Source: a virus. Taken from it: 41,173 nt of DNA. The notes under the pieces are model-generated. The model searched no databases. It saw only the letters and a program-made list of their open reading frames with translations, and had not been told where the DNA came from. The stretch is from positions 1-41,173 of IMG/VR virus record IMGVR_UViG_3300029743_000012, one strand, 5' to 3'. Numbering within the stretch: the first letter of the stretch is position 1; each line of letters starts with the position of its first letter. A program made the position numbers and the translations under genes. Below are positions 10,776 to 39,679 of the stretch, piece after piece.

Positions 10776-10786
10776 TGAGGAAAACC

Positions 10787-16341: not shown

Positions 16342-16411
16342 ATATAATATACATTTTTTACAGTCAAGCTCTGCCGGCAATCGTCGGCGGGGCTTTTTTT
16401 CGGAGTTTTCA

Positions 16412-16792: not shown

Positions 16793-16931
16793 GGAATATC
16801 TTAAAACCGGAAGTTTCAATAACCGAGTTAAAACAGATGGACTTAGGCGACCTGTATCTTGCCAATCTGGCCGCTTATGTCCGCGCACAAAACGAAATTG
16901 CCGCCTGTAACCGGGCAAAGGATAAAGCAAA

Positions 16932-17543: not shown

Positions 17544-17605
17544 TTTTTGTGAAAAATATGTATATTTTTTATATGAAAGGTTGTTAACACTTTATTAACA
17601 TTTGG

Positions 17606-17633
17606 TTGATTTTTTTTGTTTTTTATGTATAAT
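17606..17633 (+). promoter_or_regulatory. Sigma70-like promoter. TTGATT, a 16-nt spacer, then TATAAT. It drives the Panacea-domain/toxin gene pair.
   Basis: Read directly. Followed by an AAGAGGGG RBS and ATG 17656. Confidence 0.55.
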
Positions 17634-17655
17634 ATACATAAAAAAGAGGGGAAGC

Positions 17656-18183: not shown

Positions 18184-18191
18184 GCAGCTAA

Positions 18192-18602
18192 ATGGATTAC
18201 AAAGGTTATTGTCTTTGGGCTTCGGATGTTCCTGCTATAGGAGTTCCTCATTATGTTATTGTTTCTTCGGGAAGGGATGATGACGACAATTATTTAATTG
18301 TAGCAATATCTTCAATAAAATATAAGCCGGATGGGACGCCGCGTTATTTTGATGAATCTTGTGTGATAAATGTTGATGATTTGAAAGATGAAAACGGTAA
18401 TAATATCTTAAATAAGCCGTCTTTTGCCCGTTATCAGTATTCATGTGTAAAAAGCGGTAAAGAACTGTTGCAAAAACAAATAAGCCGTGGCTATTCTTGC
18501 AAATGTAAAGTAAGCGAGGAATTGCTGAGGCGTATCCAAAAAGGCGCCATGATTTCAAAAGATTTGCCTGACGACTATAAAAGGTTTTTTGCTTACTTTT
18601 AA
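18192..18602 (+). CDS. PemK/MazF-like toxin candidate (putative PanT partner)
   Basis: GYCLWASDVPAIGVPHYVIVSS...NYLIVAISS resembles the PemK/MazF pattern (GDI..V.F.P..G.E...RPALVVS......VIVVPITS). The gene is tightly linked downstream of the Panacea gene. A terminator-like hairpin CTTGAA..TTCAAG plus a T-run follows at 18605..18650. Confidence 0.4.
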   Translation: MDYKGYCLWASDVPAIGVPHYVIVSSGRDDDDNYLIVAISSIKYKPDGTPRYFDESCVINVDDLKDENGNNILNKPSFARYQYSCVKSGKELLQKQISRGYSCKCKVSEELLRRIQKGAMISKDLPDDYKRFFAYF

Positions 18603-18672
18603 CAGCTTGAACTTTTTAGTATAATCAGCCTTCAAGTTTTTCCCTTGGGGGCTTTTTTAATGGAAAAATAAA

Positions 18673-22527: not shown

Positions 22528-22863
22528 ATGCAAACTATGCAATTAGACGAGCACAACAATCTGGTGCTTGAAGACGGTTCTTTGACCGTTATCGACGGGA
22601 TTTCTGCTTGCGCTCAAGACGTAAAGACCCGCGTTGGCCTTTGTTTGGGAGAAAACCCATACGATACGGAAGAAGGCATCGACTATTTCAACGAGGTTTT
22701 GGGCAAAACCGGCGGCATTGACGGCGTGCGAGAGATGATCCGCCGGCGGATAAAAGATAACGAAGAGATTGTGCAAATCAACCGGCTTTCCACTTCAAGC
22801 GCGGACAACGTTTTGAATATCACCGCGGAAATATCAAGCATTTACGGAGTTTTTGAATTATGA
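22528..22863 (+). CDS. Baseplate wedge protein, gp25/W-like (XkdS-like)
   Basis: 111 aa. AGGAGG RBS before ATG 22528. It lies immediately upstream of the baseplate J gene. Confidence 0.5.
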   Translation: MQTMQLDEHNNLVLEDGSLTVIDGISACAQDVKTRVGLCLGENPYDTEEGIDYFNEVLGKTGGIDGVREMIRRRIKDNEEIVQINRLSTSSADNVLNITAEISSIYGVFEL

Positions 22864-24035
22864 GCCTTTTTTCTGTTACAAATCAGGGGGTCATCACGGT
22901 TGATACCTCGGAGATCAAAAGCGATTTTGAGGAGGCCTACAAAGGCGCTCTCGGGGAAAATATTAACTTGGAGAGCAGCACCTTTCAGGGGCAGATGATC
23001 ACAAACGACACGGCGACCTTAACAAAGGCGATGAACGAAGTTGTCAATATTGCCAATTCTTTTTCGGTCTATACGGCAACCGGTCAGGCTTTGGACGTGG
23101 CGGCGGCTTTTTTCGGATATTACCGCAAACAGGGCGTCGGTACGGTGGTAACGGCCACTTTAAGCGGTACGGCAAATACTGTTATCGAAGAGGGGGCGTT
23201 GGTAACCGACGGCACCTATCAATATGCGCTTTTGGATACCGTGACAATCGGTGAAGGTGGTACGGTCGAGGCTGAATTTCAATGTTTGACTCCCGGGGCA
23301 ATTCCCTGTCCTGCAGGAACATTGACGACGATTGTAACGGTGATTGAAGGTCGGGACGGCATCAACAATGCAACGGCCGGAATTATCGGCTTTGCCACGG
23401 AAAACGACAACGAGTTTCGCACCCGGATCACGGCAAACTGGCTAAACAAACGGGCACGGAGCATTTTGGGCGCCATTGTTGACAATATTGCGGCAGTTTC
23501 CGGCGTTATCAGCGTTTTAGGTCGCGAAAACTACGGCGATGAACCGCTTGAAATCGACGACATAACACTTGCACCGCATTCCGTTTATTTATGTGTTTTA
23601 GGCGGCGGGGCTTCGGATATTGCAACCGTTTTTGCCGGGCAGAAGACGCTTGGCGCCGGTGTAAACGGCAATACCGAGATAGAGTTTTACGACGCCTCTG
23701 TTGATTACATTTACAAGTATCGGATTGAGCGGCCGGCGGTTGTGCCGATCAAATTACAGATAGAATACGAGGCAAACGCCTATACTGCGGCCGATGTGGA
23801 AACGCAGATCAAAAGCATTGTCATGCAATGGGTGGCGGACAATCCTTTTAAGATACAGCAGACCGTTTCCGGCAATGTTTTGGCGCAAAGCCTCGCCGGG
23901 TTCAATCAGATCAACCTGTTGTCGGTGAAAGTGGCGCTTGTTTCCGGCGGCGATTTTACCGATTACATCACGACTACCATTTCCGAGGTTGCAAGTCTTG
24001 ATGAAAGCAACATAACCGTTTCAAAGGCTGCTTAA
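22860..24035 (+). CDS. Baseplate J-like protein (XkdT-like)
   Basis: 391 aa with a typical J-family N-terminal region. Synteny also supports the call. Confidence 0.65.
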   Translation: MSLFSVTNQGVITVDTSEIKSDFEEAYKGALGENINLESSTFQGQMITNDTATLTKAMNEVVNIANSFSVYTATGQALDVAAAFFGYYRKQGVGTVVTATLSGTANTVIEEGALVTDGTYQYALLDTVTIGEGGTVEAEFQCLTPGAIPCPAGTLTTIVTVIEGRDGINNATAGIIGFATENDNEFRTRITANWLNKRARSILGAIVDNIAAVSGVISVLGRENYGDEPLEIDDITLAPHSVYLCVLGGGASDIATVFAGQKTLGAGVNGNTEIEFYDASVDYIYKYRIERPAVVPIKLQIEYEANAYTAADVETQIKSIVMQWVADNPFKIQQTVSGNVLAQSLAGFNQINLLSVKVALVSGGDFTDYITTTISEVASLDESNITVSKAA

Positions 24036-24622: not shown

Positions 24623-26623
24623 ATGGAAAGTTTAACCATACCGCAGATTTTATCCGGTGCATTTGCTTACAACGGGCAGAAAAACACGATTCCCGACGCG
24701 CCGACAGGGTCATTCTTGGCCAGCATTCAGGAAGGTTTCCCGCCGATCACGATGATGCCGAAAAAAAACGGCGGTCAGCCTCCGGAAGGAAAGGATTTTA
24801 ACGGCATATTCAATTTGATGAGCCAGTTTTATTTCTTCACCCAAAACGGCGGGACCTATACTTTTAATCAGTCGGTATCGGACGCCATCGGCGGCTATCC
24901 GGAAAACGCACTTTTATGGTACTATCCGGACGAAAACAATGTCACGGCCAAATGGTTGAGGTCAACTAAAGCCAATAATACAGATAACTTTATCACCAAT
25001 CCGGAAGTGATCGGCACCAGCTGGGTCGAGCAAAACAACCAGCAGTCAATATTGCCGCCGACGTCAATTCTGACATTTGACCATCCTGTTGATTTCAGCG
25101 GGTTACTGCCGCTCAATTCGGCTCAATTCAAACAGGGCTACCTGATTGAAAACTGCGATACGAGCTATCCTGACTTCTGGGAAAAGATGCTGGAATATAA
25201 ACGGCTCGGGGCATCAAATGCCGCTTACGCCCGTTATGCCAAGACTCAACAGCAATATACCGCGGAACTATCCGCTAACGGATTTTGCGGGTTCTATGTT
25301 ATCGACGAAAGCGCAAAATCGGTTCGGCTGCCTTATCTGGGCGACGCTTATTTGCAGGGCGGCGCTTCTAACAGTATTGACCGGACGGCAGGGCTTCCGA
25401 GCATTCAGCATACACACAGACACCGCCATGATTTGCCGGGAGCTAATTCGAGCTGCGCCGGCGGCGGGCGTGTTCTTTATGTCTACGGTGCAAACGATTC
25501 GGGATCTGCGGAGCAGGGCTATCGCCAAAGTGCGTACGACAACACTCAGAATTCGGCAGTTTCGGCGATTTACGGCAAATCAGATACGGTACAAACAGAT
25601 TCTGTCGGCGTATTTTTTTACATTGTTGTGGCCAATACGTGGAAAGATATTTCGATAGAGGATTTTACCGCTCGGCTGGATGCTGTTACCGAGCAAGCAA
25701 TTGATCAGATCAACACTCTTGTCGCTTCGGCAACAACGGCGTTCAACACAAATGCAGATGAAAAGCAGGCGGCTGTTGACAGTTCTGCGTCGCAGGCGGA
25801 GGCTGCGGCCGGTGAGGCCAAAACTTCCGAAACCAATGCCAAAAGTTCGGAAACGGCGGCGTCCGGTTCGGCGGAGGCGGCCGCATCTTCGGCAGCTTCG
25901 GCTTCGGAATCGAAGGAAGCGGCGGCCGCGTCGGCTGTATCCGCTTCGGGATCGGCGTCAAGCGCGGAAAGTTTCAAAACCGCGGCGGAGACGGCGGCCG
26001 GTACGGCAAATGAGAAAGCGACGGCGGCGACGGAAAGCGCAACGGCCGCGGCGTCGGCGGCGGACACGGCCGAAGCATGGGCCGTCGGCAGTATAGAAGA
26101 GCGGCCGGAAGGATCGGCAAAGTACTGGGCGGAAAAAATAAATCCGGAAAATTTGCTGCCGGTCGGCATGATCCTTGCGTGGCCGGGAAATACGCCGCCG
26201 GACGGTTGGTTGGTCTGCAACGGTTCGGCCGTTTCCCGGACGACTTATGCGGATTTATTCGCAGCCATAGGTACGACTTTCGGTGCCGGTGACGGATCGA
26301 CGACGTTTAAGCTGCCGGATTATCAGGGGGATTTTTTGAGGGGTTACCTTTCCGGCACTTCTTCGGCGATCGGCACCAGACAAGCCGAAGGGTTGCCGAA
26401 TATCAGCGGTTATATCTCATACCTTTTGATGGGCGAAGACGGCCAGAAATCAGACGGAGCGTTGTCGGCAACGCTGCAAGTCGGAAATCGTTTGATCAAT
26501 GTCGGCACCGGGTCGGCTTGGAAGCAGCTTAATTTCTCTGCCAAAAATTCAAACGCGATTTATGGCGCTAACAGTCATGTCACGCCGCGCAACAACGCTG
26601 TGAAATGGTGCATAAAATATTAG
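24623..26623 (+). CDS. Tail fibre protein with an Ala/Ser-rich repeat shaft and a C-terminal phage tail collar domain
   Basis: Collar motif [63 protein letters not shown] low-complexity A/S/E shaft spans 25740..26080. Confidence 0.8.
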
Positions 26624-28846: not shown

Positions 28847-28938
28847 TTTTATTAGCACTAGGGTCGCTCCCGAAAAGCGAGAAAGCCTATCGCCTGTGCT
28901 AATTCTGTTTAACGGGCTATTTTATAGAGGCTGATAAA

Positions 28939-29697
28939 ATGAAAGATTTAATAGGAAAGAAATTTGGTAGATTAATCATTTTAAATTGTTACATGAAAAA
29001 TTATAAAAGATATTGTTTATGCTTGTGTGATTGTGGCAATAAAAAAGAGATAAGAGCCGACCATATAAGAAATGGACGAACAAAAAGCTGCGGTTGTCTT
29101 TCAAAGGAGCTATTAAAAAAGAGGCAAACAACACACGGAGAAAGCAAAACAAGACTTTATAGGATATGGGATGGCATGAAAAAAAGGTGTAGACCTAACT
29201 CTAAAAATAAATATTATTATGAAAAAGGCATAAAGGTATGTGAAGATTGGAAAGATTTTAATAACTTTAAAGAATGGGCTGAAAATAACGGATATAAAGA
29301 AAATTTAACTATCGATAGAATTGATTGTAATGACGATTATTGTCCTGAAAATTGCAGGTGGGCAACATATAAACAACAAGCGAGGAATACATCTTTTAAT
29401 AGAATGGTAGAATTTGATGGAAAAAGCAAGTGTGCCTCCGAAGTAGCTGAAATTTTAAATATAAAACAATCAACTTTTTTAGGAAGATTAAATAAAAATA
29501 AAGAATATTTGTTTTACAAATACAATAAAAGTAAAAAATATATAGCCTATCATGGTGAAGTTTTATCCATAAGTGAATGGGTTAGAAAGTTAGGCATAAA
29601 TAATTCTTCTTTTTATTATCATATCAGGAGGGGGAAAAGTGCGGAGGATACTATCAATCATTTTATGCTTAAGCTCATGCGCGCCGGCCGGCTATAG
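28939..29697 (+). CDS. HNH-type homing endonuclease-like protein with Cys-cluster and AP2-like regions. An AT-rich insertion.
   Basis: N-terminal GRLIIL...CLCLCDCGN...SCGC, then YRIWDGMKKRC...GIKVCEDW...IDRID...CPENCRWAT. GC content is far lower than the flanking sequence. Confidence 0.55.
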   Translation: MKDLIGKKFGRLIILNCYMKNYKRYCLCLCDCGNKKEIRADHIRNGRTKSCGCLSKELLKKRQTTHGESKTRLYRIWDGMKKRCRPNSKNKYYYEKGIKVCEDWKDFNNFKEWAENNGYKENLTIDRIDCNDDYCPENCRWATYKQQARNTSFNRMVEFDGKSKCASEVAEILNIKQSTFLGRLNKNKEYLFYKYNKSKKYIAYHGEVLSISEWVRKLGINNSSFYYHIRRGKSAEDTINHFMLKLMRAGRL

Positions 29698-29845
29698 TCC
29701 GGGTTGTCCGGTTTATCCGGCAGCCGGCGAAAAAGTGGCCGTGGAGCTGGAAAAAGCCAACTATTCGGAATTTCCGAACACTTGGGAATGGATCGGGCGG
29801 ATCGACAAATTGCGGCAGGAGTTGGAGGTGTGCAATATGCCTTAG
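29639..29845 (+). CDS. o-spanin (Rz1-like) outer-membrane lipoprotein candidate
   Basis: MRRILSIILCLSSC gives a good lipobox (L-S-S-C). The mature part is Pro-rich (PAGYSPGCPVYPAAG). GC-rich, like the phage backbone. Confidence 0.5.
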   Translation: MRRILSIILCLSSCAPAGYSPGCPVYPAAGEKVAVELEKANYSEFPNTWEWIGRIDKLRQELEVCNMP

Positions 29846-29903
29846 ACAAAAGGATTGAAATAGACTCGTGTCTGTTCTTGTCTTGTCTTATTTTATCCAA
29901 CAT

Positions 29904-30170
29904 TTAATCTTCTGCCACATCAAACAACTCCTTTTGAATACTCCAACCTCCGCTTTTGTTGCTATTTTCTTCAAACCTTTTCCGGTAATTCTTGGCAATA
30001 TAATCAATTATTTCCTTGTCTGTCCATTCAGGGAAACAATCTTTTTTTGAACGATTAAATAACCATTGAACGATATTGCTAACGGTTCCATAGCCACCGC
30101 ACAAGCCTTGTCTGATGTTGTTTGTGTAGCTCTCGCCGACACAGATATAAGTCTCTGCAATTTCTCCCAT
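29904..30170 (-). CDS. Hypothetical protein
   Basis: 88-aa ORF, the last gene of the leftward block. Confidence 0.4.
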   Translation of the reverse strand: MGEIAETYICVGESYTNNIRQGLCGGYGTVSNIVQWLFNRSKKDCFPEWTDKEIIDYIAKNYRKRFEENSNKSGGWSIQKELFDVAED

Positions 30171-30175
30171 TTTAT

Positions 30176-30421
30176 TTATCCCCTTATCTTTTTAAGTGCG
30201 TCTTCGGCTAAGGTTACTATTGCTTTCAACCTCATACTGTCTGGCGTATCAACGTTAATTCCCTTTAATTTTCCAAAAGTAGCGGTTGTTTTAATTGTTT
30301 CCAATTTTTCCTTGGCAATCTCAAGCTTTTTCTCTAGCTCAATCTCGCGGGCAGTCTTGTAGCCGGCTTTGCCGCAATCTATGTTGGTAAGCCCGCAGGT
30401 CGGGCAGGTAAAGTTACTCAT
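30176..30421 (-). CDS. Small CxxC...C zinc-ribbon protein. Paralog of 33458..33679.
   Basis: MSNFTCPTCGLTNIDCGKAGYKTAREIELEKKL. About 80% nucleotide identity with the paralog over ~110 bp. Confidence 0.5.
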   Translation of the reverse strand: MSNFTCPTCGLTNIDCGKAGYKTAREIELEKKLEIAKEKLETIKTTATFGKLKGINVDTPDSMRLKAIVTLAEDALKKIRG

Positions 30422-31100
30422 CGCTATCCCCTTTAAAAAAGTTCTTAAAGTCTGTTGCGCCGAATTGCCCCTCGGTCAGCTCTATGATTTCTGCGATTGT
30501 GTAACGCGGCTTTAATTCTCTTAATCCGCCGACAAAGTGTTTCGTTCCAGCCTCACAAGCACCGGTAATTGCCCGATACATTTTGATTGCCTCTTCTTTC
30601 GTAACCACAGAATCAAGACTTAAATCTTCATATTGTGAAGTGTCGCGGTCGCTGATTTTATACATCAAATCTGCACGCGCCTCTTTTATTGTGTCGCCGT
30701 GCGCATAGTTCACGCCGTCAGTTACGACGTATTTTGTTGCAAGTCCGATTTTTACCTTGTAGGCATTCTTGAGTTTGCGCAATACTTCACAAAATATACC
30801 GTCAAAAATACAGTAACGCCCGTTTTGCCAACTTAATTTTGCCTGCACCGACAACTTGAACTCAACCATATTTTGCGGGTTTTTAACCTTTTCCCTTTCT
30901 TTACTCGTAATCCCCGTGTTGCTTAGGTAAAGCGAACCGCCGACGGTCAGGTTATCCGGCAGGCTCGCTATCGTTGGCGATTTCATTAAGCCGAATTTGC
31001 CGTTTTTGACATACTTGTTAAGCGTCCGCAAATCTCCCGGCCGAGATTTAAGCCCCAGCAGCGGCTTGATTTCTTCTGCCGTATAAAAGCCGTCAATCAT
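30414..31100 (-). CDS. Hypothetical protein (228 aa)
   Basis: ORF in operon context. Confidence 0.45.
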   Translation of the reverse strand: MIDGFYTAEEIKPLLGLKSRPGDLRTLNKYVKNGKFGLMKSPTIASLPDNLTVGGSLYLSNTGITSKEREKVKNPQNMVEFKLSVQAKLSWQNGRYCIFDGIFCEVLRKLKNAYKVKIGLATKYVVTDGVNYAHGDTIKEARADLMYKISDRDTSQYEDLSLDSVVTKEEAIKMYRAITGACEAGTKHFVGGLRELKPRYTIAEIIELTEGQFGATDFKNFFKGDSDE

Positions 31101-31305
31101 AGCTTTCTCCCCTCAAGTCGAATTTATCCCCGATTTTGCGCAGGGCTTCCGCCAGATGGCAGGCAAGCCCGACAATGAACTCCGCGGATTTGTCTTTCAA
31201 AAGCTCTTCCTGCTCGTCGCGGGTGAGGTCAGAGAAGCACAGGTCTTCGTATTTCTCCCCGCGTCTGATACGGAAATAACAGCCGTCAAGATTTCTGTTT
31301 ACCAT
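31093..31305 (-). CDS. Hypothetical protein (70 aa)
   Basis: ORF in operon context. Confidence 0.4.
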   Translation of the reverse strand: MVNRNLDGCYFRIRRGEKYEDLCFSDLTRDEQEELLKDKSAEFIVGLACHLAEALRKIGDKFDLRGESYD

Positions 31306-31313: not shown

Positions 31314-31430
31314 TCATAAGATTATAGATGGACGACTGAAACTTCTGGAGATTCTAACTCCACCCAATCTTGCATTTGCAAAATCTGAAAATAAAACTAA
31401 AGCTAAAACGACAAAAAATATTTTTTTCAT
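31314..31430 (-). CDS. Tiny secreted pre-peptide (38 aa). Signal peptide MKKIFFVVLALVLFSDFANA plus an 18-aa C-terminal peptide RLGGVRISRSFSRPSIIL.
   Basis: AAGGAG RBS 8 nt upstream of the ATG. Canonical n-h-c signal peptide with an A-N-A cleavage site. Not in the ORF track because it is shorter than 60 aa. Confidence 0.35.
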   Translation of the reverse strand: MKKIFFVVLALVLFSDFANARLGGVRISRSFSRPSIIL

Positions 31431-31432
31431 GA

Positions 31433-31819
31433 TTATTTCTCCTTATCCTCGTAAAAAGTGACTTCATCTTTGCGGACGGGGCGGCAGTTTTTCATTGAAA
31501 CCAGATTAAAACCTATTAACCCACAAAATTTTTTATCAAGCAATTGTTGCAAATACCCAATATATGTACATTTATCATCATCCCAAAACCAGCAAAGGCA
31601 TTTGTTCTTAATGATGTAGTCCCAGTCAGGCTCGGGCTCTTTATAAAATTCCCAACCGTCATACGAAAGAGCTTTAACAGAAAAACTATACATAGCTTGA
31701 TTGTTCTGGTCGTAAATACGTCCATCCTTATAATAAGAATAATCTCTTTTATCCCAGCTTTTCTTTCTAATCTTGGCCCCTTTTCTGAACTCGGGCAGCA
31801 GTTCTTCTAAATATGCCAT
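31433..31819 (-). CDS. DUF2829-like (Tad2-like N-terminal motif) protein. Paralog 1.
   Basis: N-terminus MAYLEELLPEFRKGAKIRKKSW matches the DUF2829 pattern (M.F.EAL.ALK.GKKVRRKGW). Tentative. Confidence 0.4.
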   Translation of the reverse strand: MAYLEELLPEFRKGAKIRKKSWDKRDYSYYKDGRIYDQNNQAMYSFSVKALSYDGWEFYKEPEPDWDYIIKNKCLCWFWDDDKCTYIGYLQQLLDKKFCGLIGFNLVSMKNCRPVRKDEVTFYEDKEK

Positions 31820-32031
31820 TAATAATCTCCTCCTTCTGCAAACACACCGTCTAAAACGGCAACGATATTTTCATTTGAAAAATGATAAGCGTCTTCTTTT
31901 CTATGAATATTAACGTTCCCACCACAAAAGGGGACAAACCCCATGTCGTTGATATCTTTAATAGCTTTTTCGAGACGGCGAAGAGCATTTCTAAATTCTT
32001 TAGTGTTATATTGATCTTTGTACACATACAT
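31819..32031 (-). CDS. Hypothetical protein (70 aa)
   Basis: ATG at 32031 overlaps the upstream stop (TAATG). The listed longer ORF uses TTG at 32064. Confidence 0.4.
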   Translation of the reverse strand: MYVYKDQYNTKEFRNALRRLEKAIKDINDMGFVPFCGGNVNIHRKEDAYHFSNENIVAVLDGVFAEGGDY

Positions 32032-32456
32032 TAATCCTGCTCCTCCTCTTTTACTTTTCGCCAAAACAGTGCTTCCTGTTCAGTTCCTGAACAATCCCCG
32101 CTTTCGTTCAACGTCCATAAATCCCACTCTTCAAACTCGCTGATTGTGGTTGAATTGTAAAACCTATTTTGTAGACTATCGGAAAATTTTCTGGCTTTCA
32201 TCAAATCGTTATATTGTTCGTGAGATAACAGCCGTTGTTCTCCGTCGTCGGTTTCGACAATAACGCCGTTTCTTTTGTCAGTTTTCCAAAATCCAACAAG
32301 ACGGAAATGGGGAGACAATTCTTTTGCTATAGCGACGCAGACTTTTTGCGGTACCCCCCACATCTGTGCTTCCTCTTCTGTCGGATAGACAATGAAAGCG
32401 TTTCGGTTGAACAAAAATATGGGGGAAACAACGTAACCAGTGATTATGTTTGTCAT
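32031..32456 (-). CDS. Hypothetical protein (141 aa)
   Basis: ORF. Confidence 0.4.
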   Translation of the reverse strand: MTNIITGYVVSPIFLFNRNAFIVYPTEEEAQMWGVPQKVCVAIAKELSPHFRLVGFWKTDKRNGVIVETDDGEQRLLSHEQYNDLMKARKFSDSLQNRFYNSTTISEFEEWDLWTLNESGDCSGTEQEALFWRKVKEEEQD

Positions 32457-32489
32457 CTTTCTTATCCTTCCAAAATTTTAATTTCCTCA

Positions 32490-32681
32490 TCAGAGAGCGG
32501 GCGGTATGTCGCAAGCATTTCTCACGCAATCATAGCCGACATACATGCCGCACAAACAAAATGCCCCCATCACAAAGCATATCGGCATTAAGAATCTTGC
32601 AGTAGGATCATACAAGAAAGCTTTTTTATCCCACGAGCCTTCCTTCCAGTCTGCTGTCAGTTCTTCGGGGGTTTTTGTCAT
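32490..32681 (-). CDS. Small membrane protein
   Basis: C-terminal TM segment (FLMPICFVMGAFCLCGMYVGY). Confidence 0.35.
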   Translation of the reverse strand: MTKTPEELTADWKEGSWDKKAFLYDPTARFLMPICFVMGAFCLCGMYVGYDCVRNACDIPPAL

Positions 32682-32881
32682 TTGTTTGCTCCGATCGCTT
32701 TAATTATCTGCTCCATTAGTCTTTTTTGGAGGTCTGTTTTAATGAAAGTTTTTCGGCTGCAACATCCACATTGATAAGAAAATTCGTCTTCATTTAATAA
32801 AAAGCTTCCATTTTCAGTATCGTAAACATAATAACAACCAAACTTTTGCCAACCGTATTCTTCTGCTAGTTTATCCATCAT
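32678..32881 (-). CDS. Hypothetical Cys-containing small protein
   Basis: 67 aa with a CGCC motif. ATGA coupling to the downstream gene. Confidence 0.4.
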   Translation of the reverse strand: MMDKLAEEYGWQKFGCYYVYDTENGSFLLNEDEFSYQCGCCSRKTFIKTDLQKRLMEQIIKAIGANK

Positions 32882-33057
32882 CGTTACCTTTCAAAAAAGT
32901 TGCCCGGGATTTCCCAGAACTCCTTACTCAAGCTCCGCCTTATTCGGCATATTCAGGCGGAATCCCGCGGGGCGCCAATGCCGCAATCCGGGTTAATTCC
33001 AGTTTATCCCCCGGCGCGTCCTGCCTTATTGAGTATTCGGCAGCACCCCGAATTGTC

Positions 33058-33453
33058 TTAATCCTCGTCTTGTTCCTCGCCAATATATACAACTTCAATA
33101 AAACTGGTGGCAACATCGTCAACGTCCCAATCACAAGTTGAAACCTTATCTATTGCCAACTTTTTCGCCTCTTCTTTGTTGTCTGTATTAACGGTAATAG
33201 TTGCACTAACATCCGCCGTTGCGTTTAGGTAAACCGAGAATCTCCGCTTTTTCGTTATTTCGCGCCCCATAGGCTCTTCGTAGAGTTCCCAATCATCCGC
33301 TGTTATTTCGTTAGGCTTAATAAAATAAACATCGCCATATTCATCTTTTGCGTAAACTCCAGATAGTTTAATATACTTTCCGTCTCTCCAATCCTTTCTT
33401 CTAATCTTAGCCCCTTTTTTGAACTCGGGCAGAAGTTCTTCTAAATACGACAT
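33058..33453 (-). CDS. DUF2829-like (Tad2-like N-terminal motif) protein with an extra C-terminal domain. Paralog 2.
   Basis: MSYLEELLPEFKKGAKIRRKDW at the N-terminus. Start taken at the internal ATG, 5 nt after the upstream gene's stop. Confidence 0.4.
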   Translation of the reverse strand: MSYLEELLPEFKKGAKIRRKDWRDGKYIKLSGVYAKDEYGDVYFIKPNEITADDWELYEEPMGREITKKRRFSVYLNATADVSATITVNTDNKEEAKKLAIDKVSTCDWDVDDVATSFIEVVYIGEEQDED

Positions 33454-33457
33454 TGTT

Positions 33458-33679
33458 CTAAATCCTTTCCATGTCATAAAAAGCACCGGTTACTGTACCG
33501 ATTAACCACAGAGCGTTAACGTTCCATGTCGCGGTTTCTGCTTCGTTTCGAATCTCATTTAAAGCCTTAAGAGCAATCTTCAGCTTTTTCTCAAGCTCAA
33601 TTTCTTGCTTGGTCTTAAAGCCTGCTTTGCCGCAGTCTATATTCGTAAGCCCGCAGGTCGGGCAAATAAAATTACTCAT
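33458..33679 (-). CDS. Small CxxC...C zinc-ribbon protein. Paralog of 30176..30421.
   Basis: MSNFICPTCGLTNIDCGKAGFKTKQEIELEKKL. Confidence 0.5.
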   Translation of the reverse strand: MSNFICPTCGLTNIDCGKAGFKTKQEIELEKKLKIALKALNEIRNEAETATWNVNALWLIGTVTGAFYDMERI

Positions 33680-33681
33680 CT

Positions 33682-34293
33682 TTATTTTTCTCCTGTAATT
33701 TGTTGAAAAACATATAATCCCAACTCAGGCTTAACGCAGTTTCTAAGCACTTGTCGCTTTTCAATTCCTTGAAAAGTATATTTTTTTAGGTTTATTCCAT
33801 AGTTTTTTTCTTTAAAAGTGTTGCTTGATTGGATTCTATCACATTCAAAATAGTTCCCTAAAATAAATTTATTACTCCAGAAATGATGTCGCTGAATTGT
33901 GAATTTAGGTTGAATTAATGGCTTATAAAATGGGATAACATTTTCAACCACCCAGTCACATTTTGCATAACTACTTAAAAAGATAATCTCCTGCCAAAGC
34001 TTCATGTCCGGATATATGGGATGTACATTTTTTAATACATAATCACTTTGGGCAACACTATATCTTGCTCTGCTATGACTTTGACATGGTGGACTAGACC
34101 AAATAAAATCAAACTCATGGTAATGGTCTAATAGATATTGGTGTGCGTCGCCGACGACCACGTGGTCGTTTGGGAAAAAGTCCTGATAAATTGCAGCTAT
34201 CTCCAGACGCAGCTCTACGGCGGTTATTTCGTGATCATTTCCCCACAATTTGCGATTTCCACCTATACCGGCATAAAGATTAAGTATTTTCAT
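33682..34293 (-). CDS. DNA (cytosine-5)-methyltransferase, compact 203-aa form
   Basis: Motif I NLYAGIGG, motif IV SSPPCQSHS and motif VI VVENV are all present. Confidence 0.75.
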   Translation of the reverse strand: MKILNLYAGIGGNRKLWGNDHEITAVELRLEIAAIYQDFFPNDHVVVGDAHQYLLDHYHEFDFIWSSPPCQSHSRARYSVAQSDYVLKNVHPIYPDMKLWQEIIFLSSYAKCDWVVENVIPFYKPLIQPKFTIQRHHFWSNKFILGNYFECDRIQSSNTFKEKNYGINLKKYTFQGIEKRQVLRNCVKPELGLYVFQQITGEK

Positions 34294-34343
34294 TGTTTTC
34301 CTTTACTGTCGGGGCGGGGTGGCCGCCCCGGGGTGTATCAATG

Positions 34344-34575
34344 TTATTTGGCCATTTGGTTTGACAAATTATAAAGCGACTGCAAGCCGATTGCGTCAAA
34401 CGGGTTGGCGGAGTTTCCGTCAGAGCCGCCGGCAACAATCATGTTTGCCGGGAATTTGACAGAGGCGACAGCCTGAGCAATGCCGACCTTGGTTTTGTAT
34501 TCCGCATGAACCCCACAGGTTACAAGCAACGATAATGCCGATAATGACGACGATGGCGGCAATAATTTCCTTCAT
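34344..34575 (-). CDS. Putative lipoprotein gene with an apparent frameshift at a C4/G4 run (34511..34514)
   Basis: The ATG at 34575 has an AAAGGA RBS and encodes MKEIIAAIVVIIGIIVAC (lipobox IVAC) with backbone-like codon usage. The downstream good-codon-usage frame (…VHAEYKTKVGIAQAVAS…QMAK) is the -1 frame. The two join if one G is removed from the GGGG run. Confidence 0.35.
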
Positions 34576-34912
34576 TTTTTATCCTTTCATTTGATTTTTT
34601 TATAATCTCTGTATGCTTTTTTAACTGAGGCATACACACTCAGAAACGCGCTTTTGAAGAGCCAGCAAAAGCTGATTAAAAGCAAGAATATTATTAAATA
34701 TCTGAACCACATTGGTTATCCTTTCAAATTGGGCGGAGGGGTTGGGAATTACACCCAACACGAGCAAGAGTCCTATCGTAACTGTCCTATCTAAGCTCTT
34801 TTCCAGCAACACATGTTACGAATGTGTTTTAACTGCCAATGCGTCTTATTCCGCCACCCTCCATAATATCAGGCCTTTTAGCCGCATGCCCGGGCGGTTC
34901 TCGGGAGACCCC

Positions 34913-35287
34913 TCAAAAATCCATCGGTACGTCGTCAAAATATGCCGGCGGTTCCGGGGCGTCATAAGATTGCGACGGATAGTTTGCCGCCGGACGATCC
35001 CGTCTTTCTTCTCTTTCTTTTTGCAAGCCGGCGGTCAGTTCGTTATAAGTGCGAACGCAAAGTGCGGCCACTTTCAAAAGCTCGTCCGGGAAAAGGCTCA
35101 CGCTTTGCCGCTGCCAGTTGTCTGTCCCTTTGTCTTCCGGCTTTTGCCAGGAACGCTGGATATTAGCCGAATACGTGGTGTGCAACTGTCCGTCTTTAAT
35201 GTTAACTTCTTGCTTTTTGAAAATAGCTACCGACAAGCCCCGGTCGCGGTTGCTGATGAAAAGTTTGTTTTTATTTTCTTCGTTCAT
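34913..35287 (-). CDS. SSB-like protein candidate with an acidic C-terminal tail DDVPMDF
   Basis: The C-terminus resembles the SSB tail DDDIPF. Position in the recombination module. Tentative. Confidence 0.3.
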   Translation of the reverse strand: MNEENKNKLFISNRDRGLSVAIFKKQEVNIKDGQLHTTYSANIQRSWQKPEDKGTDNWQRQSVSLFPDELLKVAALCVRTYNELTAGLQKEREERRDRPAANYPSQSYDAPEPPAYFDDVPMDF

Positions 35288-35305: not shown

Positions 35306-35707
35306 TTAAAATTCCTGATAATTTCCATCCGGGTAGATCGGGTCATACTCGCCCTTGCTTTGCTCTACCATCAGGTTTTGAATGCCGTCGGTGTAATTCA
35401 TAAATTCTGCCGTCGTCATCTTGGTTGTGGTTCTGAGGTCAAAGCGGTTTTTGAAATACTCATGCAAAAAATCGGACGTAACAAACCGCAACGGCAAATT
35501 GTCAATGATGAAACCGGTTCTTTCCCAAAATTCAACAATGTGCTTGTAAATCGCCCACAAATATTTGTTTTGCTCAGTTGACCGGGTGCGGGAATGTTTT
35601 TTTATTTCGACGTCAATCCCGTATTTGCTCGAATTGAGAGTTACCTCTAATTTCGGTCGTATAAACTTAAGAATCCCGTCAATGTTTGCCGCTTTATGAA
35701 AAAACAT
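35306..35707 (-). CDS. NinB/Orf-like recombination mediator (tentative)
   Basis: RSTEQNKYLWAIYKHIV resembles the lambda NinB motif SLDQNRKLWACL. Confidence 0.35.
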   Translation of the reverse strand: MFFHKAANIDGILKFIRPKLEVTLNSSKYGIDVEIKKHSRTRSTEQNKYLWAIYKHIVEFWERTGFIIDNLPLRFVTSDFLHEYFKNRFDLRTTTKMTTAEFMNYTDGIQNLMVEQSKGEYDPIYPDGNYQEF

Positions 35708-35714
35708 ACCCACC

Positions 35715-36377
35715 TCAATATTTGCTATGCCAGTTCTTTTCAAAAGCGGCGTTAAATTCTTCGTTTCCGCGAATAAAGGAAACCATCTGTTCGGTGCGGG
35801 CAAGAAGATTTTGCCGGGTGTCTACATCACGGTGATAGTCTTCAGCGTAAACGTTTGATCCGTCGGAGATGACATATCTGAAATTGTCGATACCGCTGCA
35901 CTCCATGTAAAGAAGATGCTGAATTGATTTCAGATATTTTCCCGAGTCGTATTTGCTGACGCGTTTAATGTCGAAAATCGTGTTTCCTCGAATAATGTCG
36001 GCTTTACCGTAAAAAACATAGTTGCCGATTGTTGTGCAAACCGTTTCCTGCCACATGCCGCCTTTAACCATATCTGCAATGATGCGTGCGGTCTGTTGTT
36101 CTTTTTCATCAAGGGTCGGGAAAACAGGAGGAACAATGCTGTTTTTATCTCCGTTTTCCGTGCCTTGGGTCAACTCAAAAACAGCCGTTTCAAAGTTAAT
36201 GCCCCGCTGCAGAATTTCATTTGCCGGTTTTTTGACCTTATTCAGACAGTCCAGCCAGTCCTGCCGGGCTTTTTCTTCAATTTCTTCAGCCTTGTCGCCG
36301 TACTCTTCAAAATCGGTGTGCATATAATAAGAATACGCACCATACAAACTGGCAGTTATTAGATATTTTTTATTCAT
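35715..36377 (-). CDS. PD-(D/E)xK-family nuclease
   Basis: GKADIIRGNTIFDIKRV contains a D...(D/E)xK core. Coupled to the Sak4-like ATPase gene. Confidence 0.5.
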   Translation of the reverse strand: MNKKYLITASLYGAYSYYMHTDFEEYGDKAEEIEEKARQDWLDCLNKVKKPANEILQRGINFETAVFELTQGTENGDKNSIVPPVFPTLDEKEQQTARIIADMVKGGMWQETVCTTIGNYVFYGKADIIRGNTIFDIKRVSKYDSGKYLKSIQHLLYMECSGIDNFRYVISDGSNVYAEDYHRDVDTRQNLLARTEQMVSFIRGNEEFNAAFEKNWHSKY

Positions 36378-37293
36378 CGGCGACCTCGAATTTTCCGGTT
36401 TCCTTGTTGTATCTTGCTTTTAAGGCAGCAGCTTTTTCTTTCAGCATTTTGTTGGCAAAAATCTGACTGTCCCAGATAACCTGAAGGCCGCGGATTTCTC
36501 CATAAACTTCGTTTAAGCCGGTAATGTCTTTTATCTCTCCGACTTTTGTTTCGATGACATTTTTCAAGCTTTCATAATCTGCCAGAAGTTCTGCTTCCTG
36601 CCGGCGTTTTTCAGCGACGGCAGCGACAATTTTATCTTGGAAAAAAGTATTGCCGGAAGCCGTATCCGGGACTTCAATCACCGGCGGGAGATTAAGAGCG
36701 TTTTTGGCGTAATATTTTTCGTTAGGCGTAAAAGAAACGGTGCGTTTATTGCCTTTCATTTCCATGTAACCCATCAAATCCAGTTCTTTAACAATATCCT
36801 TGCCGGAAGAACCGGAAACATCAGGGCGAACAAAACGGATGTCGCCGTCCTTGTCTTCTTTTTCGTGGGCAACAAAGATAACCGATTTGTTGGAATTAAA
36901 AATCTGTTTAACCAAAGCCGCAAACTGAATTTTAATCGCACCCCATGCTTTCATTGACAAGGTTCCGTCCCCTTGCTTGAACTTCGGGTTTTGGCGGGCA
37001 ACGAAGTCCCCCATACGGTCAACCAGCTTGCCGAGGGTATCAATGACGATCGTATTAAACGGACGCAGTTCATCTGAATTTATCAAGTCTAAAATCTGTT
37101 GATAATTCTCAACTTGAAGAGAAGGGCATTGAAAACGCTTTTCCACGCGATAAAGTCCGCGGTCAAGGTCAATCAGAACCGGCTTGTCGACAGACAGGGC
37201 AAGCGTTGTTTTGCCGGTGCCCGGCTGTCCGTAGATCAGGCAGCTTATCGGTTGGTTATGTTTCAATTCTGACGGTTGTGTAAGTAATGACAT
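36370..37293 (-). CDS. Sak4-like (AAA_24) RecA-fold ATPase, phage recombination
   Basis: Walker A motif YGQPGTGKTTLA, followed by DLDRG. Confidence 0.7.
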   Translation of the reverse strand: MSLLTQPSELKHNQPISCLIYGQPGTGKTTLALSVDKPVLIDLDRGLYRVEKRFQCPSLQVENYQQILDLINSDELRPFNTIVIDTLGKLVDRMGDFVARQNPKFKQGDGTLSMKAWGAIKIQFAALVKQIFNSNKSVIFVAHEKEDKDGDIRFVRPDVSGSSGKDIVKELDLMGYMEMKGNKRTVSFTPNEKYYAKNALNLPPVIEVPDTASGNTFFQDKIVAAVAEKRRQEAELLADYESLKNVIETKVGEIKDITGLNEVYGEIRGLQVIWDSQIFANKMLKEKAAALKARYNKETGKFEVADE

Positions 37294-38126: not shown

Positions 38127-38345
38127 ATGACACTTAAAGAATATTTGCAGAAACAAAATAAAAATATGTACGAAGCGGCGCGAGAGCTTAATTTTCACCC
38201 AAATGATGTGCGGCGATATGCTATCGGAGAAATTATTCCCCGTGCTGAGCGGGTAAAGAAAATTTATGAATGGAGTGGCGGACTGGTTACCGCCAACGAT
38301 TTCTACTTTTCCAACGAAAACGGGGGAGCGAAAGAAAAAATATGA
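38127..38345 (+). CDS. Cro/YdaS-like HTH regulator
   Basis: YEAARELNFHPNDVRRYAIGEIIPRAERVKKIYEWSGGLVTANDFY fits the YdaS/Cro-like pattern. The GGAGG RBS has its last G at the ATG. Confidence 0.55.
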   Translation: MTLKEYLQKQNKNMYEAARELNFHPNDVRRYAIGEIIPRAERVKKIYEWSGGLVTANDFYFSNENGGAKEKI

Positions 38346-39679
38346 AACAATACGGAATGCCATACATGGGAAGCAAATCAAAGATTGCCGAAGATATTGT
38401 GGAATTTTTGCCAAGTGGCAAACGTTTTGTCGACCTTTTCGGCGGGGGCGGGGCTATGAGCCATTGCGCCGCTTTGTCCGGAAAATATGAAACGGTTTAT
38501 TATAATGAAATAAACCCGCTTGTTGTTGATTGTTTCTGTAAAGCGATTGCCGGGGAATATAAAAACGAAACGCGGTGGATAAGCCGTGAGGACTTTAAAA
38601 ACCTTAAAAATGTTGACGGATATGTAAAGCTCTGCTGGAGCTTTGGGAATAAAGGGGATTGCTATCTTTATGCGAAAGAAATTGAGCCCTGGAAAAAAGC
38701 TTTACACTATGCCCGAGTTTTAGGCGATTGCAGCCTATTAAAAGAATTTGGCATTGATTCAAACGGCAGCAGGCAGGATATAAAAACCAACAAAGATGAA
38801 TACAAAGAAAAATATATAAAATGGTATTTGAAAAATATATGCCTATCAGATGCCGATTTTAACTGCCTTAAAAACGATTTGGATAAAAAGATAAAAGACC
38901 AGAAAGAAGAACTGCGGCAATATTTGTGCAACGCGTTGAAAGAATCGGGCTTAACGGCGGCGGAAGTTGACCGGCGGTTAAACACACAGATGTCCAAGCA
39001 TTACTTCGGGCGTTCGCAGTGGGCGTTTCCTACCCGTGAAGAATATAATAAAATGCGCGCTTTTATGCCGCTTAAGCCTTATGACGAGGTTTACGGTTAT
39101 CAAGAGTTGCTGGAAAGTCTGCAAAGTCTGCAAAGGCTGGAAAGGCTGGAAAGGCAGCAAAGTCTGGAAAGGCTGCAAAAAAGTCTGGAAAGTCTGGAAA
39201 GGCTGGAAAGTCTGCAAAGTCTGCAAAGGCTGGAAAGGCTGCAAAGTCTGGAAAGGCTGGCTAACTTTGGAAAGATACAAATAAATTGCGGCTCTTATTG
39301 GGATTATGAGTATAAGGACGGCGACGTTGTTTACTGCGACCCTCCGTACGAGGGAACAGCCGGTTATAATGAAAATGTTATGATCAGAATTGAAAAATAT
39401 TTTGGTGAGAATGGAAGACTATATTTTTCTAAACAAAAAGCAGCCGCTTTCGATTCAAAGGCTTTTTACAACTGGGTCGCCGCCGCTCCATTTCCGGTTT
39501 ATTTTTCAAGCTACGAAATAAGCGATAGCCGTTTTTATCCGCTTTGGCAAAAAGAGAAAGCGCAGCTCTTAAGCGGACAAGGGAGTGGTAAAAAGAAGCT
39601 GGAAATAATCTATTCAAACCACCCTTGTCCCCCGTGTGGAACGGTGCAAATGATGTTATTCCCGGAGGCCGCGCAATGA
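38342..39679 (+). CDS. Dam-type (D12 class) N6-adenine DNA methyltransferase carrying an in-frame 9-bp tandem-repeat insertion
   Basis: Motif I MPYMGSKSKIAEDIVEFLP...FVDLFGGGGA. Motif IV VYCDPPY. About 17 copies of CTG[G/C]AAAG[G/T] at 39108..39263 encode the LES/LQS/LER/LQR tract. Confidence 0.7.
   Translation: MKQYGMPYMGSKSKIAEDIVEFLPSGKRFVDLFGGGGAMSHCAALSGKYETVYYNEINPLVVDCFCKAIAGEYKNETRWISREDFKNLKNVDGYVKLCWSFGNKGDCYLYAKEIEPWKKALHYARVLGDCSLLKEFGIDSNGSRQDIKTNKDEYKEKYIKWYLKNICLSDADFNCLKNDLDKKIKDQKEELRQYLCNALKESGLTAAEVDRRLNTQMSKHYFGRSQWAFPTREEYNKMRAFMPLKPYDEVYGYQELLESLQSLQRLERLERQQSLERLQKSLESLERLESLQSLQRLERLQSLERLANFGKIQINCGSYWDYEYKDGDVVYCDPPYEGTAGYNENVMIRIEKYFGENGRLYFSKQKAAAFDSKAFYNWVAAAPFPVYFSSYEISDSRFYPLWQKEKAQLLSGQGSGKKKLEIIYSNHPCPPCGTVQMMLFPEAAQ
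39108..39263 (+). repeat. 9-bp tandem repeat tract (~17 units of CTGGAAAGG / CTGCAAAGT) inside the methyltransferase gene
   Basis: Read directly. The frame is preserved because the unit is a multiple of 3. Confidence 0.85.

Follow-up and report, generated by a model that had tools for sequence, protein, structure and literature searches.

Tad2/DUF2829 proteins are among the most widespread phage anti-defence families, and work on them has so far centered on single-domain tetrameric sponges of ~90 aa. Tetramerization proceeds through helix α1, and the residues by which SPO1 Tad2 contacts its ligand have been listed (bioRxiv 10.1101/2023.05.01.538930). Tad2 homologues have evolved several specificities, using two different pockets (bioRxiv 10.1101/2025.08.24.671296).

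The window analyzed here is a whole stretch of 41,173 nucleotides, IMG/VR record IMGVR_UViG_3300029743_000012, which is a complete-looking ~41-kb genome of a contractile-tailed phage from the gut. On its minus strand, in the mosaic distal part of the leftward operon, is an island of small genes. Two of these encode proteins A and B, each of two domains, whereas the characterized Tad2 proteins, such as SPO1 Tad2 (Gp34.65), ModTad2, and HgmTad2 (AcrIIA7), are single-domain proteins of 86-104 aa.

Genomic setting and the compact methyltransferase

The features of the island are as follows.

33682 to 34293, minus strand: compact C5 cytosine methyltransferase, 203 aa (PF00145 match, motifs, homologues)
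33458 to 33679, minus strand: CxxC protein b, 73 aa; constant N-terminal block, then variable tail
33058 to 33453, minus strand: protein B, 131 aa, whole ORF (ORF list)
33271 to 33453, minus strand: protein B residues 1-61, mini-DUF2829 (Tad2-fold) domain
33058 to 33258, minus strand: protein B residues 66-131, separate C-terminal module; predicted β-β-α-β, low confidence
32903 to 32918, minus strand: terminator-like hairpin with T-run, in the 176-nt gap 3' of B; consensus match only
32678 to 32881, minus strand: Cys-rich ORF, 67 aa; no family match, homologues in 6 related loci
32490 to 32681, minus strand: ORF, 63 aa, one hydrophobic segment; homologues in 10 related loci
32031 to 32456, minus strand: ORF, 141 aa, apparent deletion fusion; in relatives, CxxC gene inserted at ~32190
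31819 to 32064, minus strand: ORF, 81 aa; 31835-32028 inserted with respect to L008, homologue in 1 related locus only
31433 to 31819, minus strand: protein A, 128 aa, whole ORF (ORF list)
31634 to 31819, minus strand: protein A residues 1-62, mini-DUF2829 (Tad2-fold) domain
31433 to 31633, minus strand: protein A residues 63-128, second domain; predicted Sm/Tudor-like small barrel
31314 to 31430, minus strand: hydrophobic ORF, 38 aa; homologue in one related locus
31093 to 31305, minus strand: ORF, 70 aa; conserved in 10 related loci
30414 to 31100, minus strand: ORF of no assigned function, 228 aa; mosaic, most relatives share ~50-aa blocks only
30176 to 30421, minus strand: CxxC protein a, 81 aa; paralogue of 33458-33679
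29904 to 30170, minus strand: last ORF of the leftward block, 88 aa
30315 to 30427: DNA repeat, CxxC gene constant 5' block, copy 1; 113 nt, 81% identical to copy 2
33573 to 33685: the same repeat, copy 2
31765 to 31820: DNA repeat, DUF2829-like gene constant 5' block, copy 1; 56 nt, 91% identical to copy 2
33399 to 33454: the same repeat, copy 2

The ORFs reported in a preliminary description of this DNA were all recovered on the minus strand at the same coordinates. The interval it had assigned to the island, 31433-34293, was too narrow, as the CxxC paralogue at 30176-30421 lies outside it. The island ORFs are small, overlapping, and tightly packed 3' of the methyltransferase gene, and the stop codon of CxxC protein b falls 5 nt ahead of the ATG of B. 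Just upstream of the island in the same operon are recombination genes encoding a Sak4-like annealing protein and NinB. Locus comparison revealed that the equivalent operon of related phages ends in an integrase gene, the island region being placed between the recombination genes and the integrase; the position of the island therefore resembles that of the lambda exo-xis/accessory region. Lambdoid exo-xis/accessory ("moron") regions and anti-defence hot-spots likewise occupy the distal end of an early recombination operon with an integrase downstream, and packed, overlapping small ORFs and extreme mosaicism are common to these regions and the island. Unlike in lambda, the island genes have no homology to exo-xis genes, and an integrase is not detectable in the window.

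When ten island proteins were scanned against the PADLOC models, the methyltransferase alone matched. With Pfam, PHROGs, and NCBIfam, the sole family of known function matched by any of the small proteins was PF11195, just under its cut-off. For the remaining island ORFs, scans against all four collections yielded marginal matches or PHROGs families of unknown function and nothing more. Many of them were found in few relatives only. The DUF2829-like protein had a match in "Dulem virus 29," from the gut of a lemur, and this was the only one that megablast and tblastn searches of GenBank phages returned; there is no cultured relative to draw on. A single host could not be assigned from the titles of metagenome-assembled genomes (MAGs), which conflict (Alphaproteobacteria including "Azospirillum sp. 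51_20," Succinivibrionaceae, Gastranaerophilales, and Vampirovibrio).

The methyltransferase, one of two encoded in the genome, scored 30.2 bits against PF00145 (Pfam cut-off, 22) over residues 1-79 only, and 29.2 against TIGR00675, under the cut-off of 100.65. Pfam, PHROGs, and TIGR00675 align only its first ~80 residues, and in PADLOC one model, for a type II methyltransferase, extends over residues 23-168; beyond ~residue 170, no Pfam, PHROGs, PDB, or PADLOC profile aligns. A profile of the family matched the N-terminal regions of DNMT2 and M.HaeIII in the PDB. The original identification of a 203-aa C5 methyltransferase is borne out by the PF00145 match and by the readable motifs I (LYAGIGG, residues 6-12), IV (SPPC70Q), and VI (E117-N-V). 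Across 37 homologues these three motifs, together with II (E27) and III (D49), are invariant, and an X-like motif, R184-N185-x-V-x-P, is nearly so. The region of motif VIII reads Q134-R135-H136, with H136 alone invariant, and motif IX is not recognizable. Between motif VIII and the X-like motif there are only ~45 residues, and therefore the protein has almost no target-recognition domain. Homologues fall into at least 8000 clusters, and the median among the 120 best is 203 aa. Homologues covering the full length are carried by phages of Gordonia, Vibrio, and Flavobacterium and by a Nitrosopumilaceae virus. Orphan phage C5 DNA methyltransferases (Dcm-like, PF00145) are similar in having the AdoMet-binding/catalytic motifs I-IV, VI, and X-like, in being phage-borne, and in having no restriction endonuclease adjacent; the island enzyme differs in its short length, its near lack of a target-recognition domain, and its membership in a very large compact family. 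A literature search found nothing on compact C5 methyltransferases without a target-recognition domain.

A shortened DUF2829 domain in proteins A and B

A and B had been described as sharing an N-terminal motif. Their similarity is real and wider than that, with 48% identity across 63 residues (E 4e-16), and since the alignment spans 63 residues, the shared part is a whole domain of ~61 aa. Unrelated C-terminal domains follow it, in agreement with the divergent C-termini noted before. Against PF11195 (gathering threshold, 25 bits), B scored 24.0 bits (E 5.8e-5) and A gave no match, while 40 of 47 close relatives matched at E≤0.01, the best at 4.3e-5. Neither direct searches with A and B nor the narrow family profiles A2 and A3 found Tad2 among PDB sequences. 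The link to Tad2 emerged once the profile was broadened with distant representatives; this widened profile, A5, matched 8v3e (1.2e-5), 9eib (1.3e-5), 8sme (2.7e-3), and 8kbi (9.8e-3). The DUF2829/Tad2-like label thus stands as profile homology to solved Tad2 proteins, but for a domain that is shortened and under the Pfam threshold. We refer to it as mini-DUF2829.

At ~61 aa, mini-DUF2829 is shorter than the Pfam model (73 positions) and the Tad2 proteins, and its alignment to ModTad2 and SPO1 Tad2 has a single insertion of ~26 residues on the Tad2 side. It keeps helix α1, which is its most conserved part, the basic G-x-K-I-R-R-K-x-W strand, and the terminal D-W-E strand of the Tad2/AcrIIA7 fold. 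When the alignment is read against the published structure description, the absent ~26 residues would correspond to the β2-β3 loop with helix α2, which is the V-dimer interface, and to part of β3/β4. Mini-DUF2829 differs from the Tad2 sponges in lacking these residues, in being fused or in tandem, and in its hypervariable interior. A second, unrelated domain always follows it in this phage group, and outside the group it occurs in tandem arrays of two to five copies. It is represented in metagenomes by 790 representative clusters at 50% identity; a truncated DUF2829 is not described in the literature found by our search.

The ligand-contact residues of SPO1 Tad2 are mostly lost or variable. 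The equivalents of W25 (W22 here) and W85 are invariant in the mini-DUF2829 family. In place of W73, Tyr is present in A, in B, and in 12 of 26 cassette types, the rest having I, V, C, F, or another residue, and the ligand-contacting pair of W25 and W73 is not kept as a pair. The N26 position is variable across the family, being Arg in B and Asp in A. At the D79 position B has Glu and A has Ala; of the 26 cassette types, 19 have Asp or Glu there. The deleted segment takes in the counterparts of I63 and T65, residues of β4 that line the adenine site.

Monomer structure predictions were of moderate confidence (pLDDT 74 and 69). The second domain of A, in which C74, C76, and C112 are invariant and the middle is hypervariable, is predicted to form a helix and five strands as a small Sm/Tudor-like barrel; the C-terminal module of B is predicted, with low confidence, to be β-β-α-β. 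We also considered that the second domain of A might be a degenerate second DUF2829 copy, and rejected this on an hhalign probability of 0.1%.

Constant blocks and exchangeable cassettes

The two CxxC proteins, a (81 aa) and b (73 aa), both helical with the pattern CxxC-x5-DC, are the paralogues they had been taken for, with 72% identity across 47 residues (E 4e-24). Neither matched any Pfam, PHROGs, or NCBIfam family. The zinc-ribbon label previously attached to them has to be withdrawn, as a zinc ribbon has two CxxC/CxxH knuckles with four ligands and the invariant residues here (C6, C9, D15, and C16) comprise three Cys in one CxxC and one DC. The constant N-terminal block of b consists of a CPTCG-x4-DCG knuckle and a helix, followed by the variable tail. 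P0225 is CxxC protein a with one residue changed.

The ~110-bp nucleotide repeat reported earlier was found as 113 nt at 81% identity, and a second repeat, absent from the preliminary description, spans the 5' ends of both A and B (56 nt, 91%). Both repeats are the constant blocks of the two gene families. In both families these blocks are conserved even at synonymous sites and flank hypervariable cassettes, which in A and B gives the layout constant-variable-constant-variable-constant. The conservation at third positions could partly reflect translational or RNA-level constraint rather than recombination. The cassettes, of 23-36 and 21-39 aa, are discrete, mutually unrelated types (~24% identical to each other) that reassort among related phages. 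More than 40 unrelated types occur in one phage group, a count that depends on sampling because the loci analyzed are metagenomic contigs from few related phage lineages. The two variable modules of the DUF2829-like proteins reassort independently, and the same CxxC type was found paired with different var1 types (13 unique trios only). Cassette architecture of this kind is not described in the literature found by our search.

An origin of the variability in a diversity-generating retroelement (DGR) was rejected, as lengths vary, types are unrelated, and the window holds no template copy; no reverse transcriptase was present among the ORFs scanned in the window. Silent donor cassettes, as in pilin-type antigenic variation, were likewise rejected, since scanning the window in all six frames with HMMs recovered the two copies already known for each family and no others. 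None of the cassettes occurs a second time in the window. HsdS subunits of type I restriction-modification systems shuffle target-recognition domains between conserved regions. The island genes resemble them in the alternation of constant and variable parts and in the reassortment of variable modules by recombination in conserved blocks. There is no relation in sequence or fold, the phage proteins are of 125-135 aa, silent donors are lacking in the window, and shuffling is observed from one phage genome to another.

An assembly artefact, named in the preliminary description as what would undo its reading of the paralogue repeat, or a very recent tandem duplication without functional meaning would fit repeats that are short, direct, and limited to gene 5' ends. 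Either appears highly improbable. The genes for the methyltransferase, CxxC protein, B, and A recur in this order on an independent IMG/VR contig, L008, which matches the window at 99.8% identity over 32186-34819, and this rules out faulty assembly as the source of the arrangement. Many contigs encode near-identical proteins (P0001 on 111 and P0121 on 4), the paralogues are unrelated 3' of the constant blocks, and the gene order b-B...A...a does not fit tandem duplication. In L008, L005, L039, and L040, ~550 bp with a CxxC gene splits the two halves of the 141-aa ORF, 32186-32373 and 32028-32193.

Candidate roles of the island

We propose that A, B, and the CxxC proteins would be binders made early in infection, with variable surfaces that keep pace with variable targets in the host or in rival phages. 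The constant blocks would act as a structural or oligomerization scaffold and would also supply the homology by which recombination swaps cassettes between co-infecting phages or prophages. Counter-defence would be the most likely role because the variable surfaces would track such targets, in a mode differing from the canonical gcADPR sponge, and the methyltransferase would most likely methylate phage DNA so that restriction is evaded. We regard this explanation as a whole as evenly poised. The interpretation of the set as a counter-defence locus with Tad2-like members is supported in part.

Among the other explanations, one we think unlikely is that A and B are true Tad2-type sponges, whose oligomers would sequester Thoeris, CBASS, or Pycsar signals, the cassette setting which signal; gcADPR, His-ADPR, and cyclic di- or mononucleotides would be the candidates. 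The homology to solved Tad2 proteins and the predicted common fold favor sponge activity, as do the invariant W25 and W85 equivalents, the frequent acidic residue at D79, the conservation of the tetramerization helix α1, and the several specificities and two pockets of known homologues. The absence of ~26 Tad2 residues, which would take in the α2 V-dimer interface, the deletion of I63 and T65, the unconserved N26, the replaced W73, and the Ala of A at D79 argue against it. The cassette types also far outnumber the handful of known signals, and A and B have two domains where characterized Tad2 proteins have one. Quite improbable in our estimation is that mini-DUF2829 binds nucleic acid, as AcrIIA7 binds tracrRNA, and sequesters host or phage RNA of a guide or regulatory kind, with the predicted barrel of A possibly adding RNA or peptide binding.

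The island might instead be unrelated to host defence and encode modulators of lysis-lysogeny or host physiology, or superinfection exclusion against rival phages, similar to the poorly understood lambdoid exo-xis genes; its variability would then reflect phage-phage competition or neutral turnover. Hypervariability is also expected of neutral, fast-turnover accessory ("moron") genes. The location of the region in relatives between recombination genes and integrase, its extreme mosaicism with indels (e.g., the apparent fusion by deletion at 32190 and the inserted stretch 31835-32028), the restriction of many ORFs to few relatives, and the lack of defence or anti-defence matches in PADLOC for the ten proteins, methyltransferase excepted, are consistent with such a role. 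We nonetheless hold it to be improbable, as the sole detectable homology of the small proteins, to Tad2/AcrIIA7, points to anti-defence, two methyltransferases indicate restriction pressure, and discrete cassettes in strictly conserved scaffolds indicate selection on binding specificity and not neutral decay.

Somewhat unlikely, in our judgment, is that the constant blocks are dedicated recombination linkers, which would make the locus a population-level, non-DGR system in which two binder families exchange cassettes by homologous recombination at codon-level conserved linkers, and mini-DUF2829 a widespread uncharacterized branch of the Tad2 fold with a binding mode unlike that of the known sponges. 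The Sak4/NinB recombination genes of the same operon may power the exchange, whose outcome would resemble that of HsdS domain shuffling or antigenic variation, applied to counter-defence.

For the Tad2/DUF2829 family, the new element is a shortened fold of ~61 aa, common in metagenomes, used as a fusion or tandem module, and with most known ligand contacts lost; the targets of the mini-DUF2829 proteins are directly testable. A methyltransferase almost without a target-recognition domain, in a very large compact family, raises the question of how sites are chosen. With scaffolds conserved at synonymous sites and swapped cassettes in two unrelated, adjacent families of small proteins, the locus is a concrete case in which to study phage binder diversification without a retroelement.

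Genome and operon setting of the island

At about 41 kb, the window has the appearance of a complete phage genome, in which the following genes were assigned with PHROGs:

406-1698, DnaB-like helicase
4294-5715, large terminase
5720-8116, portal
9012-10244, head protease
10775-11860, major head protein
14035-15603, tail sheath
18673-20100, tape measure
22860-24035, baseplate wedge subunit
24623-26623, tail fibre
28939-29697, HNH endonuclease

An int-alpA RNA motif (Rfam RF02996; 40 bits, gathering score 35.8) lies at 28851-28916 (+), directly 5' of the HNH endonuclease gene. The GC content falls to 0.35-0.43 within the tail-gene module (16001-19000), compared to about 0.48-0.50 in other structural genes, and to 0.35 where the rightward and leftward blocks converge (29001-30000); both stretches may be acquired modules.

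The leftward block spans 37636 to 29904 and encodes a Sak4-like annealing protein (36370-37293), NinB (35306-35803), and a chain of small abutting or overlapping genes together with the methyltransferase of the island:

33682-34293 (-), 203-aa C5 cytosine methyltransferase
33458-33679 (-), CxxC-b, 73 aa
33058-33453 (-), B, DUF2829-like protein, 131 aa
31433-31819 (-), A, paralogue of B, 128 aa
30176-30421 (-), CxxC-a, paralogue of CxxC-b, 81 aa

In phages with a 98%-identical B (loci L060-L065), ERF or YqaJ recombination genes are followed by small ORFs and then a tyrosine integrase, all on one strand. By this order, the A/B island belongs to the accessory part of an early operon for recombination, in a position comparable to the exo-xis region of lambdoid phages. 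An integrase, present in these relatives, was not detected among the scanned ORFs of the window, and the phage may have lost it or have another lifestyle.

Just upstream of the island, a 124-aa protein (34913-35287, -) ends in an acidic tip, DDVPMDF, resembling SSB tails, and had no family match in Pfam, PHROGs, or NCBIfam. The segment between this gene and the methyltransferase (34294-34912) is ORF-poor, its only ORFs being two very small hydrophobic ones at 34420-34575 and 34587-34712. An all-GC hairpin of 7 bp (GGGGCGG-ccacc-CCGCCCC; 34311-34329, -), without a T-run, lies 18-36 nt 5' of the methyltransferase ATG. A terminator-like hairpin with a T-run is found at 32903-32918 (-), inside the 176-nt gap 3' of B, so that the methyltransferase, CxxC-b, and B may be a unit of three genes with a terminator of its own inside the operon.

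Paralogous genes and cassette exchange

The preliminary description had reported similar N-termini in A and B, two related CxxC proteins, and a DNA repeat in the CxxC genes. All were recovered: A and B share 48% identity over 63 residues (E 4e-16), the CxxC proteins 72% over 47 residues (E 4e-24), and a repeat finder placed the CxxC-gene repeat at 30315-30427 and 33573-33685 (113 nt, 81%). A second repeat, absent from that description, is shared by A and B at their 5' ends (31765-31820 and 33399-33454; 56 nt, 91%) and simply is the first constant block of the DUF2829-like genes. The repeats could be read as an assembly artefact, but L008, an independent IMG/VR contig, matches the window in the gene order methyltransferase, CxxC-b, B, A, with 99.8% identity across 32186-34819 of the window; this rules out such an origin, to which we assign a negligible probability.

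Relative to L008, segment 31835-32028 is an insertion in the window. The window appears to have lost the CxxC gene usually found ahead of A, and the 141-aa ORF 32031-32456 appears to be the fusion that this deletion left. A unit of 60 nt, coding for LPDNLTVGGSLYLSNTGITS, is present in a single copy in the window (30904-30967), in a 228-aa protein (ORF 30414-31100), and as four tandem repeats in the related contig L037 (26-269), which suggests a variable-copy repeat protein.

We consider the cassette architecture of the DUF2829-like proteins the most noteworthy feature. Among the best 120 of 194 homologues found with B, residues 1-22 are almost invariant and are followed by about 35 freely varying residues (the first cassette, var1), an almost invariant middle block (D-W-E-L-Y-Q-E-P-I-D-W-D-Y-I-I-K-N-K-C-L-C-W-F-W-D), 21-39 variable residues (var2), and a closing C-R-P-V-R-R-D-E-V-T-F-Y-E-D. 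When 105 distinct proteins were clustered at 60% identity, 43 var1 and 58 var2 types were obtained, with a median between-type identity of 24%. Fifteen of the 43 var1 types were paired with at least two var2 types (maximum 18), and in one case two var1 types were each seen with both of the same two var2 types.

Pairwise identity of constant and variable segments in 35 genes
Three constant blocks: nucleotide 79-86%; third-position 65-77%
Two variable cassettes: nucleotide 42-46%; third-position 39-42%

Within the constant blocks, codons are fixed in a position-specific way, with TAT in 35/35 genes at one Tyr codon, and, at different Glu codons, GAA in 35/35 or GAG in 34/35. The cassettes are replaced and reassorted and do not diverge in place, since blastn against related loci gave blocks of 97-99% identity stopping at the domain border; 33269-33454, for example, is matched in locus L005, where the N-domain of B is fused to an A-type second domain.

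Beyond D-W-E-[LF]-Y-x-E-P, A and B are unrelated. The C-terminal part of B is predicted, with low confidence, to be a beta-beta-alpha-beta module, which is also found alone or behind other N-termini; matches to eL20/LX, PurS, and T7 Gp2 occurred in the list for B only.

The CxxC proteins have the same design. An invariant block (M-S-N-F-x-C-P-T-C-G-x4-D-C-G-K-A-G-Y-K-T-x-R-E-I-E-L-E-K-K-L), conserved at the codon level in the 5' part of the gene, precedes 15-40 residues variable in length and sequence and, in most members, a conserved A-x-x-A-L-x-K-I-K-E-I-K tail that the 73-aa copy of the window lacks. The zinc ribbon proposed previously is not supported, because only C6, C9, D15, and C16 are invariant across the family; a single knuckle made up of three Cys and an Asp would be possible. 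Of the 58 loci found with the DUF2829-like query, approximately 33 have a CxxC gene no more than about 650 bp upstream of a DUF2829-like gene, as do 19-20 of the 28 found with the CxxC query; the linkage is frequent, not obligatory.

The mini-DUF2829 domain and Tad2

B scored 24 bits against PF11195 (Pfam threshold 25) and A had no match, while 40 of 47 close relatives matched at E<=0.01. No solved structures were found with the single sequences of A and B or with narrow profiles. When 1.84 billion representatives were searched exhaustively by profile, 790 clusters were obtained, and a profile of 44 diverse family members was then compared with PDB sequences.

PDB matches of the 44-member profile
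8v3e, Tad2, E 1.2e-5
9eib, ModTad2, E 1.3e-5
8sme, SPO1 Tad2 (Gp34.65), E 2.7e-3
8kbi, AcrIIA7/HgmTad2, E 9.8e-3

The alignment to Tad2 has one gap of about 26 residues on the mini-DUF2829 side. Read against the published description of the SPO1 Tad2 structure (bioRxiv 10.1101/2023.05.01.538930), the gap would correspond to the beta2-beta3 loop with helix alpha2, extending into beta3/beta4. Tad2 owes its V-shaped dimer interface to helix alpha2 and its tetramerisation to helix alpha1, and its pocket is lined by the loops around beta4 (bioRxiv 10.1101/2023.05.01.538930). The alignment numbering reproduced every ligand residue named in that work, and the equivalents of these residues were then located in 26 cassette types from the close family.

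SPO1 Tad2 ligand residues in mini-DUF2829
W25: W22, invariant
W85: W55/56, invariant
N26: variable; R in B, D in A
I63, T65: deleted
W73: Tyr in A, B, and 12/26 types; others aliphatic or other
D79: D or E in 19/26 types; E in B, Ala in A

The likeness to DUF2829/Tad2 noted in the preliminary description thus stands as homology to solved Tad2 proteins and a common fold, but the label of a Tad2-type sponge is not justified at present: the N-domain of A and B is a shortened form, mini-DUF2829, that has lost most documented gcADPR contacts. Tad2 homologues use more than one pocket and bind several ligands (bioRxiv 10.1101/2025.08.24.671296); even so, with these contacts missing, a canonical nucleotide sponge is improbable. 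An RNA binder like AcrIIA7 seems to us less probable again; AcrIIA7, itself among the matched structures, binds tracrRNA via basic residues, which by our own numbering would fall in a strand that is constant in mini-DUF2829.

Members of the wider family carry the mini-domain by itself (61-65 aa), as tandem arrays of 2, 3, or 5 copies, or joined to a wide range of C-termini. Two copies are present in many 110-135-aa proteins, three each in P0409 (213 aa) and P0410 (335 aa), and five in P0388 (943 aa), interleaved with repeats that are Clp_N-like by eye only.

The methyltransferase and the role of the island

Profiles from Pfam, PHROGs, TIGR00675, and PDB align only the first 80-110 or so residues of the 203-aa methyltransferase (motifs I-IV), and one PADLOC type II methyltransferase model covers residues 23-168. 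The catalytic motifs are intact. Motifs I, IV (P-P-C70-Q), and VI (E117-N-V), as described earlier, are invariant or nearly so in an alignment of 37 homologues, as are E27 of motif II, D49 of motif III, H136 of the Q-R-H motif, and an X-like R184-N185-x-V-x-P. Because only about 45 residues separate motif VIII from the X-like motif, the enzyme has essentially no target-recognition domain. The compact family to which it belongs, as an ordinary member, is widespread and poorly characterised (at least 8000 clusters; median 203 aa in the best 120). Full-length homologues of 44-50% identity, annotated as methyltransferases, occur in phages of Gordonia, Vibrio, and Flavobacterium and in a Nitrosopumilaceae virus. 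A second, Dam-like methyltransferase of 469 aa (38270-39679, +) matches phrog_56 and, below cut-off, TIGR00571, in two matched stretches; the phage thus has both a C5 and an N6-adenine methyltransferase.

The constant blocks would serve as scaffold and recombination substrates, and A, B, and the CxxC proteins would be binders expressed early, with variable parts that track changing targets. Counter-defence would be the likeliest role, with the methyltransferase shielding phage DNA from restriction. We give this composite an even chance of being correct; the counter-defence label for the island is plausible, if unproven. A role of the island unrelated to host defence we consider unlikely, to much the same degree as a canonical sponge.

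Our literature search found no description of the shortened DUF2829 module or of the cassette organisation. At their core, these observations describe a shortened Tad2-fold module of wide occurrence and a clear combinatorial exchange of cassettes in two families of small phage proteins that neighbour each other.
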